A stretch of DNA of 64,000 nucleotides from Candidatus Sericytochromatia bacterium (GCA_035285325.1 JAYKJB010000117.1:832-64831); one strand, 5' to 3'. Positions 29,246-36,604 are shown, counted from the first letter of the stretch. Numbers and translations are program-made. Notes: generated from the sequence alone by a model not told the origin.

Positions 29246-30288
29246 TCAAGTCGCCGGATGCAGCAGGCTGCGCAGTTCCGGCTGCTCGCGGAAGCGCCAG
29301 ATGCGGCCATCGATGTAGTAGTGGAACAGCGTCAGCATGCCAAGCGGCGCAAAGACCCAGTAAAACAGGTCCTGGGTGTAGCCCAGCACCTCGATCGTGC
29401 CGGCCAGCAGACCGTATGCCAGGGCCGCGCCACCCCACTTGAGCACGATCCGGGCGTGCGCCGGGAAGCGCCGCCGCTGGTAATGCATCATCCAGCCGTG
29501 ATACTGGGCATCGTGATAGGCCGTCTCGATCGCCTCGGCCACCAGAAACGGCACCGACGCGACCAGGAAGACCACGTAATGGGTCGACAGCGCCGCCAGC
29601 ATCAGGGCGATTTTCGGCCCATTCAGGCGTTCCCCCAGCGCAGCGCGATACAGCTGCCGCAGCAGCCAGGCCCCCAGCACCAGGGCCGCCAGCTGGGTCA
29701 GGCCCTCGACCAGCGCGGCCGGCACGGTGGGGTAAGTGGCCACCCACTTGCCGTAGACCGGCACGGTGCGCGTCCAGGCATCGCCGAACTCGGCGGCATA
29801 CTCGTGCAGCACGCAGGCATACAGGCCCAGCTCGAAGGCGAGCCGGTCAAGCCCCTGGTCCAGCGTCGGCACAGGCTCGTTCAGGCCCTGGTAGACCCGC
29901 AGGAATCCGACGTGCTGACGGATGATGTGGTGGCTCCCATACAGCGCCAGGAAGGCCGTGAAAGGCGCCTCCAGGCCCAGCGCCGGCACCAGCAGCCCCG
30001 CCGCCATGACCAGGGGCAGGCCCCAGGTGTACAGGGGCCGGCGCCGGGCGAATTCGACCGGATCGGCGTGCGTGCGCGCGAAGGTCTGGAAGATGTGCGG
30101 CAGGTCGAGCAGGGCCGTGAAGGCGAAGTAGGTCAGCAGCGCGGCCGGGCCGCTCGGGGCGAGGCCCCAGGCTTTCAGGGCCTCATACAGGCCCAAAAAG
30201 ACGAAGGTCAGCGCGGCTGCCCCGATGAAGAAGGTCCCGTCGTAGCCGGGGCCGACGATCCAGCGCGGCGGGGCAGGCGCGGCGGGGT

Positions 30289-30313
<25 letters not shown>
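29246..30313 (-). CDS. Integral membrane protein of unknown function
   Basis: 355 aa with 7-8 hydrophobic helices and a conserved-looking HHIIRQH segment. High GC3. Confidence 0.55.
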
Positions 30314-31110
<797 letters not shown>

Positions 31111-31135
31111 GGGAAGCAGGCTCCTGGTGGCAGGA

Positions 31136-31558
31136 TCAGGCGAGCGGATGGCCGTCGGCATCGGTGCCGAGGCGGCTCTCCCAGGCATTCCAGGCCAGCG
31201 CCAGCCAGGTGGCGATCCAGGTGAGGCCGCCCAAGGGCGTCACGGCCCCCAGCACGGCCTGGTCGCTGAGCACGAGCGCGTACAGGCTCCCCGAGAACAG
31301 GACGGTGCCGGCCAGAAAGCCGATCAGCAGGCCCGAGCCGGGTCGCAGGACGCGCAGGTGCAGGGCGATCGCCACCAGGATGATCGCCAGCGCGTGCCAC
31401 ATCTGATACTGGGCCGCCGTGTGCCAGGTCTCCAGGCGTTCCGGCGCGAGCAGGCCGGCCGTGACCTTGGCTTTCAGGGCGTGCGCCCCGAAGGCGCCGC
31501 ACCCCACGGCCAAGGCGGCGCTGACGGCGCCCATTCCCAGATACAGCCTATCCCACAT
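31136..31558 (-). CDS. DUF423 (YgdD-like) small membrane protein
   Basis: The ATG at 31558 follows GGGAGG. MWDRLYLGMGAVSAALAVGCGAFGAHAL is typical of DUF423. Confidence 0.75.
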   Translation of the reverse strand: MWDRLYLGMGAVSAALAVGCGAFGAHALKAKVTAGLLAPERLETWHTAAQYQMWHALAIILVAIALHLRVLRPGSGLLIGFLAGTVLFSGSLYALVLSDQAVLGAVTPLGGLTWIATWLALAWNAWESRLGTDADGHPLA

Positions 31559-32240
31559 CTTGGCCTCCCTGACCGTCGGGTCGCTTGACCGCCAGCGACA
31601 GCCCGTCGCCGATCGGCAGCAAGCAAAAATCGATGCGTGCGTCCGCCTGCATGCGCGCATTCAGCGAGCGGATCGCGCAGGTCTCCGGATCCTGGCAGCT
31701 CGGATCGGCCACCCGTCCCGACCACAGCGTGTTGTCGATCGCCACGAGGCCTCCGGGGCGCACCAGCCGCAGGGCCCGCTCGTAATAGGCCTCGTAATTC
31801 GCCTTGTCGGCATCGATGAAGGCCAGATCAAAGGTATCGGCCTGCCCCGCCGCAATCAAGGCGTCCAGCGTGTCGAGGGCGGGGCCCAGGCGCAGCTCGA
31901 CCCGCTCGGCCACCCCGGCCGCTTCCCAGTGGCGGCGCGCCACCTGGGTGTAGGTATCGCTGATGTCGCAAGCCAGCAGGCGACCGTCCGGCGGCAAGGC
32001 CAGCGCGGTCACCAGGCTGCTGTAGCCGGTGAAAACGCCCACTTCCAGGGCTCGCCGCACGCCGAGCAGCTTGACCAGCAGATGCAGGAATTGCCCCTGC
32101 TCCGGACTGATTTGCATGCGCGCCTCGGGCAGGAGCGCGGTCTCCGCGCGCAGGCGGGCCAGGCACTCCGGTTCGCGGGAGACGGCTCCCGTGAGGTAGG
32201 CGTGCAAGGCATCGGAGAGGTTGAGCGTGCGCAGCGACAT
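31548..32240 (-). CDS. Class I SAM-dependent O-methyltransferase (caffeoyl-CoA OMT family)
   Basis: Start at the internal ATG at 32240; the track ORF over-extends to 32768 through a Gly run. Motifs LEVGVFTGYSSL and DLAFIDADKANY. Confidence 0.85.
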   Translation of the reverse strand: MSLRTLNLSDALHAYLTGAVSREPECLARLRAETALLPEARMQISPEQGQFLHLLVKLLGVRRALEVGVFTGYSSLVTALALPPDGRLLACDISDTYTQVARRHWEAAGVAERVELRLGPALDTLDALIAAGQADTFDLAFIDADKANYEAYYERALRLVRPGGLVAIDNTLWSGRVADPSCQDPETCAIRSLNARMQADARIDFCLLPIGDGLSLAVKRPDGQGGQDVG

Positions 32241-32433
32241 CGAGACTCCAGGCGCGGAACGCTGCCATTGTAGCGTGTCGCCGACCGCTGCGTCGGAAGA
32301 AAAGATTAATTGAAGCTTAGTGCTTCCTTTACCACTTCCTCGCTGGCTGGCCGCGATAAGCCCAGTGGGAGTTTGGGAGTCTGACTCGGATGTCTGGCGA
32401 CATCCGAGTCCCCACTGGCATGGGAGTGTACCG

Positions 32434-33501
32434 ATGACCCGACTGATCGCCACGGCCAACGGCTGGATACCGGTGCCGTCGTTTCTCCTCTCGGCCCTGC
32501 CGAGCACGCCTGGGCCGACCCGCCCCGCGTGGCCCAGCCCGCCCACGCCGCCACCGCCGCCGCCCCCACCGCCGCCTCCGCCGCCTCCGCCACCGCCACC
32601 TCCGCTGGCGCCCCCCTCACCTTTCCTGTCGCCCAGCACCACCCAGCTGGGCCCGCCGCCTGCCCCCGCGGCATTTCCTGGCGTGGCCTGGCCAGCCGCG
32701 CTTCCGACACCGCCCGGCGTCGTCCCCGCGGGGCCGCTTCCTACGCCGACGCTGGACCAGCTGGCCACTCAGCTGTCCCAGCTGCACAGCCAGCTGACGG
32801 GCCTGATGGCCCAGCTGAGCGGGCCAGCCGCCACGACCCTGACCAGCCCCGCCCCACCCGCATCCACCCGTTCGGGCACGCCGGCGCCCAGCGGACCAGG
32901 CCCTTCTGCCCTCGCTATCCCTGCAAGCTCTGAGCGCCCCACGGCGCCCGCGCCCCCCACCGGCCATCCTCACCAGCGGCGTCACGCGTGGTTTCTGAGC
33001 CAGGGCCGCAGCCCGTCCAATCCCAATGAGGACGCGCCCGGAAACGGCAACTGCGGACCGGCTTCGGCCACCATGGTGGCGCGCGCCTTCGGGCAGTTGC
33101 CGATCAGCGCCAAGGAAGTCGACGCCGCCGTCGAAACGATGCGCCGACGCATGGGGGAGTCGTCCAACGAGTACCGCGGTACCAGCGTCGCGGGCATCGT
33201 GAAGGGGCTGCGCAGCTACGGGCTCGAGGCCCAGGCGATCTGGAGTATCGACTCGGTCGAGCCGATCCGCGCCGAGCTGGCCAAGGGACGTCTGGTGATC
33301 GCCCACGTGGTGCCCACCTACCTCTGGGCAGGCGCCGAGACGGGTCATTACACCGTGGTGACGGCGATCGAGAACGGCAAGGTCTACCTGAACGACCCGG
33401 CCAGCCGATCCGGGCCCGTGATCGTGTCGGTGTCGGACTTCTGGCGGGCCGTCCGAAAACGTGGCACTTACGCGATCGTGTCGGCGGGACCGAAGGCTTA
33501 A
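32434..33501 (+). CDS. Peptidase-C39-like (papain-fold) domain protein with N-terminal polyproline linker
   Basis: The ATG at 32434 follows GGGAG. Candidate catalytic Cys in GNGNCGPASATMVARAFG and His in GHYTVVTAIENGKVYLNDPA. A run of about 20 Pro at 32548..32604. Confidence 0.6.
   Translation: MTRLIATANGWIPVPSFLLSALPSTPGPTRPAWPSPPTPPPPPPPPPPPPPPPPPPPLAPPSPFLSPSTTQLGPPPAPAAFPGVAWPAALPTPPGVVPAGPLPTPTLDQLATQLSQLHSQLTGLMAQLSGPAATTLTSPAPPASTRSGTPAPSGPGPSALAIPASSERPTAPAPPTGHPHQRRHAWFLSQGRSPSNPNEDAPGNGNCGPASATMVARAFGQLPISAKEVDAAVETMRRRMGESSNEYRGTSVAGIVKGLRSYGLEAQAIWSIDSVEPIRAELAKGRLVIAHVVPTYLWAGAETGHYTVVTAIENGKVYLNDPASRSGPVIVSVSDFWRAVRKRGTYAIVSAGPKA
32548..32604 (+). repeat. CCG/CCA/CCT codon microsatellite encoding about 20 consecutive prolines (in-frame, within a CDS)
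   Basis: ccg cca ccg ccg ccg ccc cca ccg ccg cct ccg ccg cct ccg cca ccg cca cct ccg, read directly from the sequence. Confidence 0.9.
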
Positions 33502-33596
33502 TGAAAACTTTACCTGATGAGTCTCACTTGTAACCGTCTTGCAACCTGCGGGTCGCATAAGACCCTTGTGAGCGGCGCGCCCCGCGCCCCCGAAAG

Positions 33597-33703
33597 TTTT
33601 CCACTCCCCATCCCACACTCCTCCAAAAACTCCAAACTCCTCCAATTCCAAAAAACTCCCAAATTCCATTCCCAAACTCCAAATTCCTCTCCAAACTCCA
33701 CTG
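33597..33703 (+). ncRNA. Candidate small RNA or structured 3' region: low-GC, CT-rich tract with about 12 ACUCC/CCUCC-like motifs, ending in an intrinsic terminator
   Basis: ccactccccatcccacactcctccaaaaactccaaactcctccaattccaaaaaactcccaaattccattcccaaactccaaattcctctccaaactcca. GC far below the local 70% and no ORF. Immediately followed by the hairpin plus T-run at 33707..33738. Confidence 0.3.
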
Positions 33704-33706
33704 AAC

Positions 33707-33738
33707 GAGCGGCCCTCTGGGGCCGCTCATTCAGTTTT
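33707..33738 (+). terminator. Rho-independent terminator
   Basis: GAGCGGCCC-TCTG-GGGCCGCTC perfect 9-bp stem followed by ATTCAGTTTT. Confidence 0.75.
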
Positions 33739-34085
33739 GGCGTGGCCGTGCCGAATCAGCGCCGCCTCGCGCGCGAGTTCACGTTCAAGCCGTCAAGCCG
33801 CCCTCTTCGCGACGCTGCCACCCACCGGCCCGCTGCGCCCCTGAACATCGGAGCAGATCACGCGGGTCATCTCGTTGGAATCCGGCATGTTGTGCCGCGA
33901 CACGAATTCGATGCGGCCAGCGCTGGGCGCGGGATCGAAGTCTTGATGAGCACTCGCTGAGACAAGGTCCAGGCAGCCCGCCGGACCCGCCCAAATCGAT
34001 TTAACCTTTTCTTGAGGTCGCTCGGCTGGGTTGTTGGTGGTTTGTCAGCCAGGTGTCCCATAACCATCCTGTAAGCGGTTCGAGT

Positions 34086-34354
34086 CCCACCCACTTCGCA
34101 GCCTCATCGCAGCCCACACCTCACCCACGTCGCAGCCTCGTCGCAGCCCACACCTCAACCCCTTCGCAGCCTCGTCGCAGCCCACACCTCACCCCCTTCG
34201 CAGCCTCGTCGCAGCTCACACCTCACCCCCTTCGCAACCTCGTCGCAGCCCACACCTCACCCACTTCGCAGCCTCGTCGCAGCCCACACCTCACCCACTT
34301 CGCAGCCTCGTCGCAGCCCACACCTCACCCACTTCGCAGCCTCATCGCAGCCCA
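34086..34354. repeat. Tandem array of about 8 copies of a 34-bp unit (consensus cacttcgcagcctcgtcgcagcccacacctcacc)
   Basis: Units read directly from the sequence with 1-3 substitutions per copy. The period is not a multiple of 3, so it is non-coding. Confidence 0.9.
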
Positions 34355-34487
34355 TCTCTCTCCAACACCCATCTCTCTCTCCAACACCCATCTCTCTCTC
34401 TCCAACACCCATCTCTCTCTCCAACACCCATCTCTCTCTCCAACTTCCATCTCTCTCTCCAACATCCATCTCTCTCTCCAACACCCA
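34355..34487. repeat. Tandem array of about 7 copies of a 17-21-bp unit (catctctctctccaacaccca), directly abutting the 34-bp array
   Basis: Copies vary by the length of the (tc)n run (3-5) and by single substitutions (caacttcca, caacatcca). Confidence 0.9.
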
Positions 34488-34529
34488 ACGCATCAAACAT
34501 CGCAGTCTCAACGCAGCACCATCTTCAAA

Positions 34530-34566
34530 GCACGCAGGGCAGTCCGCTTGGACTGCCCTGCGTGCT
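34530..34566. other. Perfect 16-bp inverted repeat (stem-loop) between the repeat arrays and the His-rich protein gene
   Basis: GCACGCAGGGCAGTCC-GCTT-GGACTGCCCTGCGTGC. Only a 3-nt T-run follows on either strand, so it is a weak terminator or a protein-binding site. Confidence 0.6.
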
Positions 34567-34586
34567 TTGGGAGGCTGTGACATCGC

Positions 34587-34618
34587 AAATAAAAACCCCC
34601 GGGGAAATTCCCCGGGGG
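34587..34618 (-). terminator. Rho-independent terminator of the His-rich protein gene
   Basis: On the minus strand, CCCCCGGGG-AATTT-CCCCGGGGG followed by TTTTTATTT, lying 15 bp past the stop at 34634. Confidence 0.8.
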
Positions 34619-34633
34619 CGCGGCGTTTGTAGA

Positions 34634-34894
34634 CTAGTGGCCGCCGTGGCCGTGGCCGTCCTTGTGGTCGTGACCATGGTCCGCGGGCTTCGCGTGCGCG
34701 TCGCCGTGGGCCGGCTTGGCAGCCTTGGCCTTGGGAGCGGGCGTGGGGGTCGCCTTGGGCTTGGCGTGCGCATCGCCATGGGCGGCCGCCGGCTTGGCAT
34801 GCGCGCCACCTTCATGATGATTCGCCAGCGCGGGCAGGTTGGCCGAGCTCGCAACGGCGATGCAAAGGGCGGCACCAAGCATTTTGATGTTCAT
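34634..34894 (-). CDS. Small secreted histidine-rich protein (putative periplasmic metal-binding protein)
   Basis: Signal peptide MNIKMLGAALCIAVASSANLPALA. The mature 62 aa contain 14 His in HxxxH / HGHDHKDGHGHGGH patterns. Has its own RBS and a strong terminator. Confidence 0.7.
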   Translation of the reverse strand: MNIKMLGAALCIAVASSANLPALANHHEGGAHAKPAAAHGDAHAKPKATPTPAPKAKAAKPAHGDAHAKPADHGHDHKDGHGHGGH

Positions 34895-35156
34895 GATGGT
34901 TCCTTTCGAGAATCAAGAGAGATGAAAACCGGATGCACTCCGTCCATACCCGAACTTGCCCGTTCCTTAAACCCGTTTCGCGAGCGAGCAAAAATAATTC
35001 GATCTGACACCTTCGTCAAAAGCCCCCATCTGGCCGCCAGGGCAGCCCCACGAGGCTGCCGATTCACGCCCTGCCCGCCCCAGATCTGGCCCGTCCCTAT
35101 CGGAGCGAGTGGTTCATTCCGACAAAGCGTATAGAGGCCCCCGTCAACGGGGAATC

Positions 35157-36527
35157 ATGTCGGTGCGCGCTGCCTTTCGGCGGTGTCGCCAAGCGGGCAG
35201 TTCAGGAGTCGCCGTGGCGCAAAAATGTTTCTATCACCCCAAAAGTGAGGCCGTCGCGACCTGCGAAGGCTGTCGCCTCTCGATTTGTGCGAACTGTGAC
35301 GAAGAGGGCCTGTGCCGCGATTGCCGGAACAAGCGCAAGGCGGTGGCCGACCGCAAACGGCGGATGGGGGGCGAGGAAGGGGGCGACGCGAGCGGGGACG
35401 ACCACGGCGATGCGGGGCAACCCGAAGAAAAGCCGCACGTTTATGACCCGGACAGGTACGCCTATCGTCGGCCGGCCTCCCAGATCATCGTCTCCAAGAA
35501 ACAGCCAGCGAGGGGCAGCGGGCTGATGAATCCGCGCATCGCCCTGTTTCTCGGGGCGATGATGGGCGTGGCGATCTTCGTCACCGGACCGAACGTGCTC
35601 GGTCTCTGGAACAGTGAATTGCTTGCCTCCTTCAGCGAGTCGGAGGTTGCCCCGCCGGCCGGCGGAGGCGACCTGCCCCCAGGCGAGTTGGGCGCCCCCC
35701 CGCCGGAGGCAGCGCCGGGCACGGCAAGCGAACCCTCGTCAGGAGGCGCAGCTGCGGCTGCGCCGGCGCCTGCTGGGCCCTCCGCCTCGCCCACGCCCGA
35801 TCTGAGTGCGCAGCGACAGAATGCGGCCCTGTGGGCGTCGGTTCATTCCGAAGCGATGCAAGTGGAGACCAGAACCCGCGAACATGCGCTGACCGATCAA
35901 GCCGCGTTACAAAAGGCGGTACAAGAAGGCAAGCTTCCAGCGGAAGTCGTCCTGGCCTTGGCCTCCAGCCCTCCGGCGGCCCCACCGCTCCCAGCGAACG
36001 TCCGCACGCAGCCAGGTGGCGCGCCCCCGCCTCAGGGGGGGGCAGTGGCAGCCTCCGGAGCCAGCGCAAGCGCTCCCGGGGTGGGTGGTCCCCCGGCAGT
36101 CGCCGCCACGCGCCCATCCGCTGCCGCCCCTGCAGGGGCCGTCAATCCCGCCCCGATCGCCGCAGCTCAACCGACGCGAACCACCTCCACCACGCCCGTC
36201 GCCGCAGCACCTCAAGCGCTGCCCGCCAACCAGTCGGTGGCGACACCGCGAACGCCCCAGGCTGCGCCGCCCCCGGCGCAAACGGCCGGACGAGCGCAGC
36301 CTGCCAGCGCCGCGGCAACCCCTCCTGGGGCCTCGGCGATCGCCACGGCCCTGCGCAACCGCTATGCCGGCACGCGGCTGGCCCGCAGCGTGCGGGCAGC
36401 CCGGCGCGAGCTGCGCCGCCGCTGGGTCCCACCCGCCTTCGCCAGCCGCCCTCGCAACGACGTCCTGGCCCGCGGCCCCGGCGGCGACAGCGAACAACTC
36501 AAGCCGCCCCTGGTCACGCGCTGGTGA
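35157..36527 (+). CDS. Membrane protein with N-terminal B-box/anti-sigma-like zinc finger, single TM helix and a long Pro/Ala-rich extracytoplasmic region
   Basis: GGGGAA RBS. Cys cluster CFYHPKSEAVATCEGCRLSICANCDEEGLCRDCRNKR. TM segment IALFLGAMMGVAIFVTGP. The Pro/Ala tail could be over-called. Confidence 0.5.
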   Translation: MSVRAAFRRCRQAGSSGVAVAQKCFYHPKSEAVATCEGCRLSICANCDEEGLCRDCRNKRKAVADRKRRMGGEEGGDASGDDHGDAGQPEEKPHVYDPDRYAYRRPASQIIVSKKQPARGSGLMNPRIALFLGAMMGVAIFVTGPNVLGLWNSELLASFSESEVAPPAGGGDLPPGELGAPPPEAAPGTASEPSSGGAAAAAPAPAGPSASPTPDLSAQRQNAALWASVHSEAMQVETRTREHALTDQAALQKAVQEGKLPAEVVLALASSPPAAPPLPANVRTQPGGAPPPQGGAVAASGASASAPGVGGPPAVAATRPSAAAPAGAVNPAPIAAAQPTRTTSTTPVAAAPQALPANQSVATPRTPQAAPPPAQTAGRAQPASAAATPPGASAIATALRNRYAGTRLARSVRAARRELRRRWVPPAFASRPRNDVLARGPGGDSEQLKPPLVTRW

Positions 36528-36604
36528 CGAGGTAGCATCGGCCAGGGCGTCGGCCCCGCTGGCGCGTCACGATGAGCCTCAACGGGTCAGGCGAGCGGCT
36601 CAGG

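Follow-up and report, generated by a model that had tools for sequence, protein, structure and literature searches.

A G-free, CTCC-rich tract downstream of a C39-like peptidase gene in an uncultured Sericytochromatia lineage: regulatory RNA or decayed tandem repeat?

Why does a stretch of DNA with a G+C content of 69.5% carry, shortly after a peptidase gene, a run of 106 nucleotides without a single G, and is this run a regulatory RNA? The window (the whole stretch of DNA that was analysed, 64 kb in length) was drawn from a 71.7-kb contig of a MAG of an uncultured organism, 'Candidatus Sericytochromatia bacterium'. The Sericytochromatia, themselves non-photosynthetic, are the class that is sister to the photosynthetic cyanobacteria. 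The ABC-F protein encoded in the neighbourhood of the run is 100% identical to an NCBI entry that bears the same organism name. The six neighbouring proteins (NCBI accessions MEB3198400-405) are all singleton clusters at 90% identity in a set of ~15 billion proteins, which means that there is no close relative in the collections; the lineage represented here is sampled once. The window is also enriched in the HIP1 octamer GCGATCGC, with 35 occurrences against 3.95 expected from dinucleotide-preserving shuffles of the whole window (0 of 100 shuffles reach 35), and so is a relative designated L003 (6 against 0.64 expected from base composition), indicating that this cyanobacterial signature extends to the non-photosynthetic sister class.

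The first-pass annotation, made from the DNA alone, had called attention to a plus-strand sequence almost devoid of G and dense in CTCC-type motifs. Both properties are borne out. The G-free tract occupies positions 33597..33702 of the plus strand, consists of 106 nt with zero G (47 C, 34 A, 22 T), and contains ten CTCC motifs (seven as ACTCC, two as CCTCC) and four TTCC motifs. With G at ~35%, the per-position chance of a G-free run of this length is ~1e-20 by our own arithmetic. Only two G-free runs of at least 30 nt are present in the 64 kb, and there are no C-free runs of at least 25 nt. The minus strand of the tract was said to be rich in GGA, and it does contain 16 GGA within 33597-33702, the maximum for the window (106-nt windows reach 8 at the 99.9th percentile). 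The complementarity of the CUCC motifs to Shine-Dalgarno sequences of the GGAG type was confirmed as well. The tract is not an artefact of the assembly of the MAG contig, because an independent Logan assembly from the same sample (L084, run SRR19514065) is 100% identical over window positions 30097..34136.

The tract is repetitive in its central and 3′ parts. Seven heptamers of the form AAAYTCC are clustered within 73 nt (33627..33699, plus strand), and these are seven of the ten matches to AAAYTCC in the window; the three matches outside the tract compare with ~5 expected for 64 kb of this one contig with both strands counted. Tandem Repeats Finder detected in the tract a period of 19 (2.4 copies, 86% matches), a period of 7 (7.1 copies, 61% matches), and further periods of 10, 12 and 13. 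Autocorrelation gave a z score of 3.9 at lag 19 and a weak signal (z 2.1) at lag 7, and a 16-nt direct repeat is found at 33627 and 33674. The heptamers are degenerate and interspersed with other bases, the motifs of the tract are spaced irregularly, at 3-10 nt, and without helical phasing, and the first 30 nt on the 5′ side are rich in CTCC without the heptamer pattern.

The gene upstream of the tract is genuine, as the first-pass annotation had it: a C39-like cysteine peptidase gene (32434..33501, plus strand), the translation of which matches Pfam families PF13529 (E 2.3e-12) and PF03412 (E 3e-7). The stop codon TAA (33499-33501) is followed by TGA in frame, and the start is uncertain, being either ATG at 32434, with GGGAG 7 nt upstream, or GTG at 32320. 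Homologues of the protein have at most 66-68% identity and are from Sericytochromatia MAGs. Over 32320-33501 (plus strand), the N-terminal half of the protein is a long proline-rich region of low complexity that includes 21 prolines in a row. The peptidoglycan-binding domain PF01471, present in most homologues, is not part of this protein, of which only the last 142 amino acids were called by the gene caller of the Logan contig. The 5′ UTR of the gene is predicted to fold (32333-32430, plus strand) into a long hairpin whose 12-bp inner stem (32383-32394 and 32399-32410) is perfect; in this hairpin the presumed Shine-Dalgarno sequence GGGAGUG pairs with an upstream CACUUCC, so that the ribosome-binding site may be masked in cis if the modelled fold is correct. 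An unpaired internal loop of the same predicted hairpin is formed by a GGAG-rich element, TGGGAGTTTGGGAGT (32366..32380, plus strand), which is complementary to positions 33668-33680 of the tract.

On the plus strand, the sequence between the stop codon and the end of the terminator is predicted to fold in three parts: a segment closed by a helix (33503-33601), a single strand of ~100 nt, and a terminator hairpin. The first of these parts (33503..33601, plus strand) is closed by a 9-bp helix of GAAAACUUU (33503-33511) with AAAGUUUUC (33593-33601), predicted in both the minimum-free-energy and the centroid structure and without comparative support. The helix encloses a GC palindrome, GGCGCG-CCC-CGCGCC (33574-33588), which the first-pass annotation had placed directly before GTTTTCC; CCCGAAA intervenes, and the palindrome has no adjacent T-run. 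By itself the palindrome has a folding energy of -10.6 kcal/mol (z -1.0), no better than shuffled sequences. The second part, which is the tract, has a minimum free energy of 0 kcal/mol and is fully single-stranded in the predicted fold; no folding is possible, and the term 'structured 3′ UTR' was wrong for it. The third part is an intrinsic terminator (33700..33738, plus strand) with the stem ACUGAA-c-GAGCGGCCC, the loop UCUG, the stem GGGCCGCUC-a-UUCAGU and then UUUU. Its 9-bp core (33707-33728, eight of nine pairs G-C) extends to 33700-33735, where the folding energy is -27.6 kcal/mol (z -6.1) and none of 200 shuffled sequences was as good, and so the strong terminator that had been reported after the tract, followed by TTTT, is well founded. 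It is located 199 nt past the stop codon of the C39-like gene.

Terminator-like sites in the window were also scanned as a class. Their numbers in window positions 1-60000 are at the level of chance (12, 11 and 12 against 10.0, 9.7 and 9.5 expected), and only two sites in the 60 kb scanned are strong, defined as having at least nine pairs of which at least eight are G-C: 33707-33728 on the plus strand and 34619-34595 on the minus strand. Both of these are within the lineage-specific spacer that begins after the C39-like gene, and canonical intrinsic terminators therefore seem to be rare in the contig outside the spacer (33502-34633).

The signals that bear on transcription are few. Neither by scan nor by manual reading does either strand have a promoter-like site of the sigma-70 type between stop codon and tract, and no hairpin with a T-run facing in the minus direction was found near the tract. 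Because the only hairpin with a T-run faces in the plus direction and the minus strand has none, it is plausible from the sequence that the plus strand is the transcript, in agreement with the strand that had been favoured at first, and the tract would fall inside the presumed 3′ UTR of the C39-like gene. The proposal of a small RNA did not hold up, for there is neither a promoter-like site between stop codon and tract nor a match to an Rfam family even at E <= 10. The Rfam covariance models that had been suggested as a check matched nothing at the gathering score in the whole window and nothing relevant at E <= 10 in 33300-35200. Internally repetitive, confined to this one genome and without a match among known RNAs, the tract is most likely not a regulatory small RNA.

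The tract is the first element of a non-coding, lineage-specific spacer of 1.1 kb (33502-34633) that contains two more repeats on the same strand, 390-650 nt downstream of the tract. One is a G-poor tandem array with 7.9 copies of a 34-bp unit (34088-34354, plus strand, 94% matches), and the other is a G-free tandem array with 6.9 copies of the 19-bp unit TCTCTCTCCAACACCCATC (34355-34487, plus strand, 93% matches). The latter is contained in the second G-free run (34351-34489), which at 139 nt is the longest in the window. Both arrays are young, and one short-read assembly (L002) stops within the array of 19-bp units. That the tract and the arrays go back to one origin was considered and rejected, given that the scores of local alignments are not above those of shuffled sequences and that the similarity is one of composition only; the tract and the 19-bp array have the 19-nt period in common. 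NCBI annotation places no gene in the spacer (locus tags VKP62_14485 and 14490 directly follow the peptidase), the ORFs that overlap the spacer have no Pfam support and no coding signal, and the exact product of one of them (33517-33960) is not on record.

Other features of the spacer and its far end may be described briefly. A sequence resembling a tRNA T-loop, GGTTCGAGTCC (34077-34087), directly precedes the first 34-bp unit, and neither ARAGORN nor Rfam identified a tRNA or tmRNA there. Just past the arrays is a perfect hairpin with a 20-bp stem and a 4-nt loop (34526..34569; -44.6 kcal/mol, z -8.2) that has a T-run on neither strand. A convergent gene (34634-34894, minus strand) encodes a histidine-rich protein of 86 amino acids (MEB3198404.1, annotated by NCBI as a hypothetical protein), and the scan for hairpins with T-runs found its canonical terminator at 34619-34595 on the minus strand. 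The protein has an N-terminus like that of a signal peptide, repeated (H)GDAHAKP motifs and a histidine-rich C-terminus, HGHDHKDGHGHGGH, which may mean that it is secreted and binds metal; no Pfam family matches it, and its cluster is a singleton.

The closest available organism (L003/L001, run SRR19514069) has 76% amino-acid identity in the ABC-F protein and 67% in the C39-like protein; L001 is one locus from a scan of genome contigs with the peptidase, at 66% identity. A second relative (L085, 78% identity in ABC-F) confirms the gene arrangement of the relatives, and L003 and L085 were both reached by way of synteny through the ABC-F neighbour. The order of genes for an aldo-keto reductase (AKR), DUF423, a methyltransferase and the C39-like peptidase is kept in L003/L001, with a convergent S8 peptidase gene within a few bases of the C39 stop codon. 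Neither the tract nor the arrays are present in L003/L001, and the same is true of L085. Synteny is broken between window positions 33502-36600 and the corresponding regions of L003 (16199-17681) and L085: at the position of the S8 gene, the window has the repeat spacer and the gene for the histidine-rich protein instead, and the next gene (35214-36527) is homologous to the next gene of the relative. In the relatives ABC-F is beside the aldo-keto reductase, whereas in the window it is on the other side. No remnant of an S8 peptidase was found in the spacer by tblastn. Judging by these alignments, the window lost the S8 gene and gained the repeat spacer and the gene for the histidine-rich protein.

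A broader comparison gave the same picture. Among 83 loci with C39 homologues (368 kb in all, 80 of the loci coming from an alignment-based scan of metagenomes), there is no G-free or C-free run of at least 40 nt except in one locus of 31% GC, and neither upstream nor downstream of the peptidase do the ten best loci have a CU-rich tract or share a motif in the 5′ UTR. An exact search of metagenome contigs for the terminator sequence returned 0 matches, and blastn of the whole spacer against plasmid and phage collections returned no match. The first-pass annotation had looked to conservation in related genomes to sustain its proposal, and here it is contradicted, since the tract is absent from the closest available relative (a distant one, at 67-76% amino-acid identity) and from the 83 homologue loci.

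The best explanation of these observations, with a probability of roughly one half, is that the tract is a decayed tandem repeat carried passively as a long 3′ UTR of the C39-like gene. A unit lacking G, represented today by the AAAYTCC heptamers and the period of ~19 nt, would have multiplied by slippage in the lineage-specific non-coding spacer downstream of the gene. It would now be transcribed passively from the promoter of the peptidase gene, presumably as part of the same transcript, inside an unusually long 3′ UTR of ~235 nt, and the transcript would end at the hairpin with the T-run (33700-33738), which may also protect the 3′ end of the mRNA. Repetition of a unit without G would be enough to explain why G is missing, why there are CUCC and GGA 'motifs' and why the RNA has no structure, in which case the motifs would not be selected binding sites and the tract would probably have no sequence-specific function.

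The internal repetition of the tract (the cluster of seven heptamers, the periods from Tandem Repeats Finder, the autocorrelation at lag 19 and the 16-nt direct repeat) supports the decayed repeat, and the neighbourhood is prone to repeat formation, having two young arrays, G-poor and G-free, nearby on the same strand. Also in its favour are the restriction of the tract to this lineage and the lack of Rfam, coding and annotation signals, and the reading as a 3′ UTR is favoured by the plus-strand terminator and by the lack of a promoter-like site after the stop codon. Against the decayed repeat, the 106-nt G-free run exceeds the 73-nt core that is clearly repetitive. Against neutral slippage, the presence on one strand of three G-poor repeats without detectable homology to each other hints at a strand-specific constraint on RNA or DNA and keeps a reading of that kind alive, be it an unstructured RNA platform, an RNA that pairs with Shine-Dalgarno sequences or an effect on DNA. 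The tract is flanked precisely by a stop codon on one side and, on the other, by one of the two strong terminators in 60 kb, a placement that could be functional, and it may serve a young function despite its absence at 67-76% amino-acid identity.

If the tract has a function as RNA, that function might be base-pairing. A single-stranded, CU-rich RNA, either the 3′ UTR itself or a product processed from it, would modulate translation or stability, a reading that we consider doubtful but that accords with a tract predicted to be fully unpaired and to display ten CUCC sites. It is likewise open to doubt that the targets would be GGAG-rich sequences, among them the loop in the gene's own 5′ UTR (32368-32380) and its Shine-Dalgarno sequence GGGAGUG. 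The longest word in the 64 kb with an exact reverse complement in the tract is an 11-mer at 32368, within the 5′ UTR of the same gene, but 11-mer matches are expected by chance ~0.4-0.9 times per 64 kb by our own arithmetic and the location was noticed post hoc. Between tract positions 33668-33680 and 32368-32380, where the element is located in a predicted internal loop, 13 consecutive pairs are possible, of which one is G-U. At -22.4 kcal/mol this duplex ranks in the top 0.5% of 23-nt windows; equally, ~0.5% of such windows are as good, other G-rich sites are better, and the gene's own 5′ UTR is outside the top 40 of the 40-nt windows in an RNAduplex scan of the window. CACUCCC (33602-33608), as read from the sequence, is exactly complementary to the GGGAGUG of the gene, and a fragment derived from the 3′ end would be stabilised by the terminator hairpin, but there is no conservation and no sign of processing or of a promoter belonging to the tract. 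L003, which has no tract, likewise has a GGAG-rich 5′ UTR, and when the two 5′ UTRs are aligned their elements are out of register. The 13-bp match of tract and 5′ UTR, a product of modelling, is only a lead. A related reading, improbable in our judgment, is that the tract is a G-free single-stranded decoy or sponge that offers at least ten CUCC sites to GGAG-containing RNA or to a C/U-specific RNA-binding protein; that the hairpin would stabilise it and that its targets would include, in its own mRNA, the ribosome-binding site and the loop of the 5′ UTR is just as improbable.

Composition rather than pairing would matter if the tract and the downstream G-poor arrays were an unstructured, C-rich loading platform on nascent plus-strand RNA, which is unlikely. 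The users of such a platform might be a Rho-type helicase (with the tract resembling a rut site), another protein that binds single-stranded RNA, or an RNase, any of which would make transcripts terminate or decay before they pass from one convergent gene towards the other; this part of the proposal has equally little probability. The tract qualifies by being 44% C and 0% G, by having 38 YC dimers and by being unstructured over 106 nt; C-rich, G-poor sequence is the signature of rut sites as described in PMC13289151, and all three repeats between the convergent genes are G-poor on the same strand. Nevertheless, a functional Rho is lacking in 33 of 33 Cyanobacteriota examined (PMC11347177; also PMC13289151), surveys whose coverage does not extend to Sericytochromatia. 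Moreover, there is no rho gene in the window, the strong intrinsic terminator directly after the tract makes a factor-dependent site redundant, and the relatives do without the tract. A search of the literature for CsrA or Rho in Sericytochromatia found nothing. The tract might alternatively act at the level of DNA, as an iteron-like array of binding sites or as a recombination-prone or length-variable repeat at the breakpoint of a rearrangement. The AAAYTCC units are repeated, the tract is at the break of synteny (where the relatives have the S8 gene, and ABC-F elsewhere), and the neighbouring arrays are young enough to have broken short-read assembly, L002 ending in the 19-bp array; nonetheless the chances of this reading are slim, as the spacing of 3-10 nt is irregular without helical phasing, the units are too degenerate for an array that is now expanding, and there are no genes for replication, partition or a recombinase nearby. 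Least likely of all is that a minus-strand RNA sequesters a protein of the CsrA/RsmA type in the manner of CsrB or RsmZ, an alternative raised by the first-pass annotation that we regard as very improbable. The 16 GGA in 106 nt are at the maximum of the window, twice the 99.9th percentile of 8, in a weakly structured context rich in A and U, but this count follows automatically from a G-free repeat of CTCC and TTCC on the other strand. Only one GGA is in the context ANGGA and three in AGGA, none is in a hairpin loop, and the minus-strand fold (-10.5 kcal/mol, z -1.3) is no better than those of shuffled sequences. The minus strand has no promoter-like or terminator site near the tract, a transcript from it would continue antisense into the peptidase gene, and no Csr or Rsm family of Rfam is matched even at E <= 10. 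Thus the alternative fails on the context of GGA, on structure, on strand signals and on Rfam models. A tblastn search of the 64-kb window found no csrA, hfq or proQ; csrA is carried by only ~30% of bacterial genomes (PMC13443453).

The decayed tandem repeat, if it is the true explanation, is an ordinary low-complexity repeat, and its lesson is one of caution: dense CUCC or GGA 'regulatory motifs' arise automatically when a unit without G is repeated. For the Sericytochromatia, which are almost unstudied, two points are of modest interest: short repeats like those of cyanobacteria, together with HIP1 enrichment, reach the sister class, and canonical intrinsic terminators seem to be rare in the contig beyond this spacer. 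If instead the tract were a decoy, for which there is no more than a lead, single-stranded decoy RNA would be a novel form of post-transcriptional regulation, found in an uncultured lineage that is sister to the cyanobacteria.

Comparison with known systems reveals a partial likeness to each of several. C-rich small RNAs that are directed against Shine-Dalgarno sequences or derived from 3′ UTRs (RsaE, sX13, RepG) have two to four C-rich motifs in the loops of a fold that is conserved among species. The tract resembles them in having unpaired C/U-rich motifs complementary to GGAG sites and a terminator hairpin on the 3′ side, and differs from them in having at least ten motifs in 106 nt, no fold, no conservation and no promoter of its own. 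Its minus strand is similar to CsrB, RsmY and RsmZ in the very high density of GGA (16 in 106 nt), but it is the wrong strand with respect to the terminator and lacks GGA in loops, an Rfam match and a promoter, and there is no csrA in the window. Like a rut site, the plus strand would provide ~100 nt of C-rich, G-free, unstructured RNA downstream of a gene; unlike a rut site, it is directly followed by an intrinsic terminator, in a phylum of which the members examined are without Rho (PMC11347177).

The STRR (short tandemly repeated repetitive) sequences of filamentous cyanobacteria are repeats of units usually 7 bp long in non-coding DNA between or after genes, and have been proposed to affect the stability of transcripts (PMC2670836). 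They have been described as forming hairpins, whereas the tract cannot pair. The heptamers of the tract are degenerate and interspersed and do not constitute a clean tandem array, and AAAYTCC is not dispersed in the window, which is part of one contig. Consensus sequences known for STRR (CCCCAGT and others) differ from the AAAYTCC unit of the tract. Being degenerate, without hairpins and made of a unit that shows no dispersal in this one contig, the tract probably does not belong to the STRR. They are nevertheless the nearest described kind, and the tract is like them in that short units recur in non-coding DNA, here in a host that belongs to the sister class of cyanobacteria and is enriched in HIP1.
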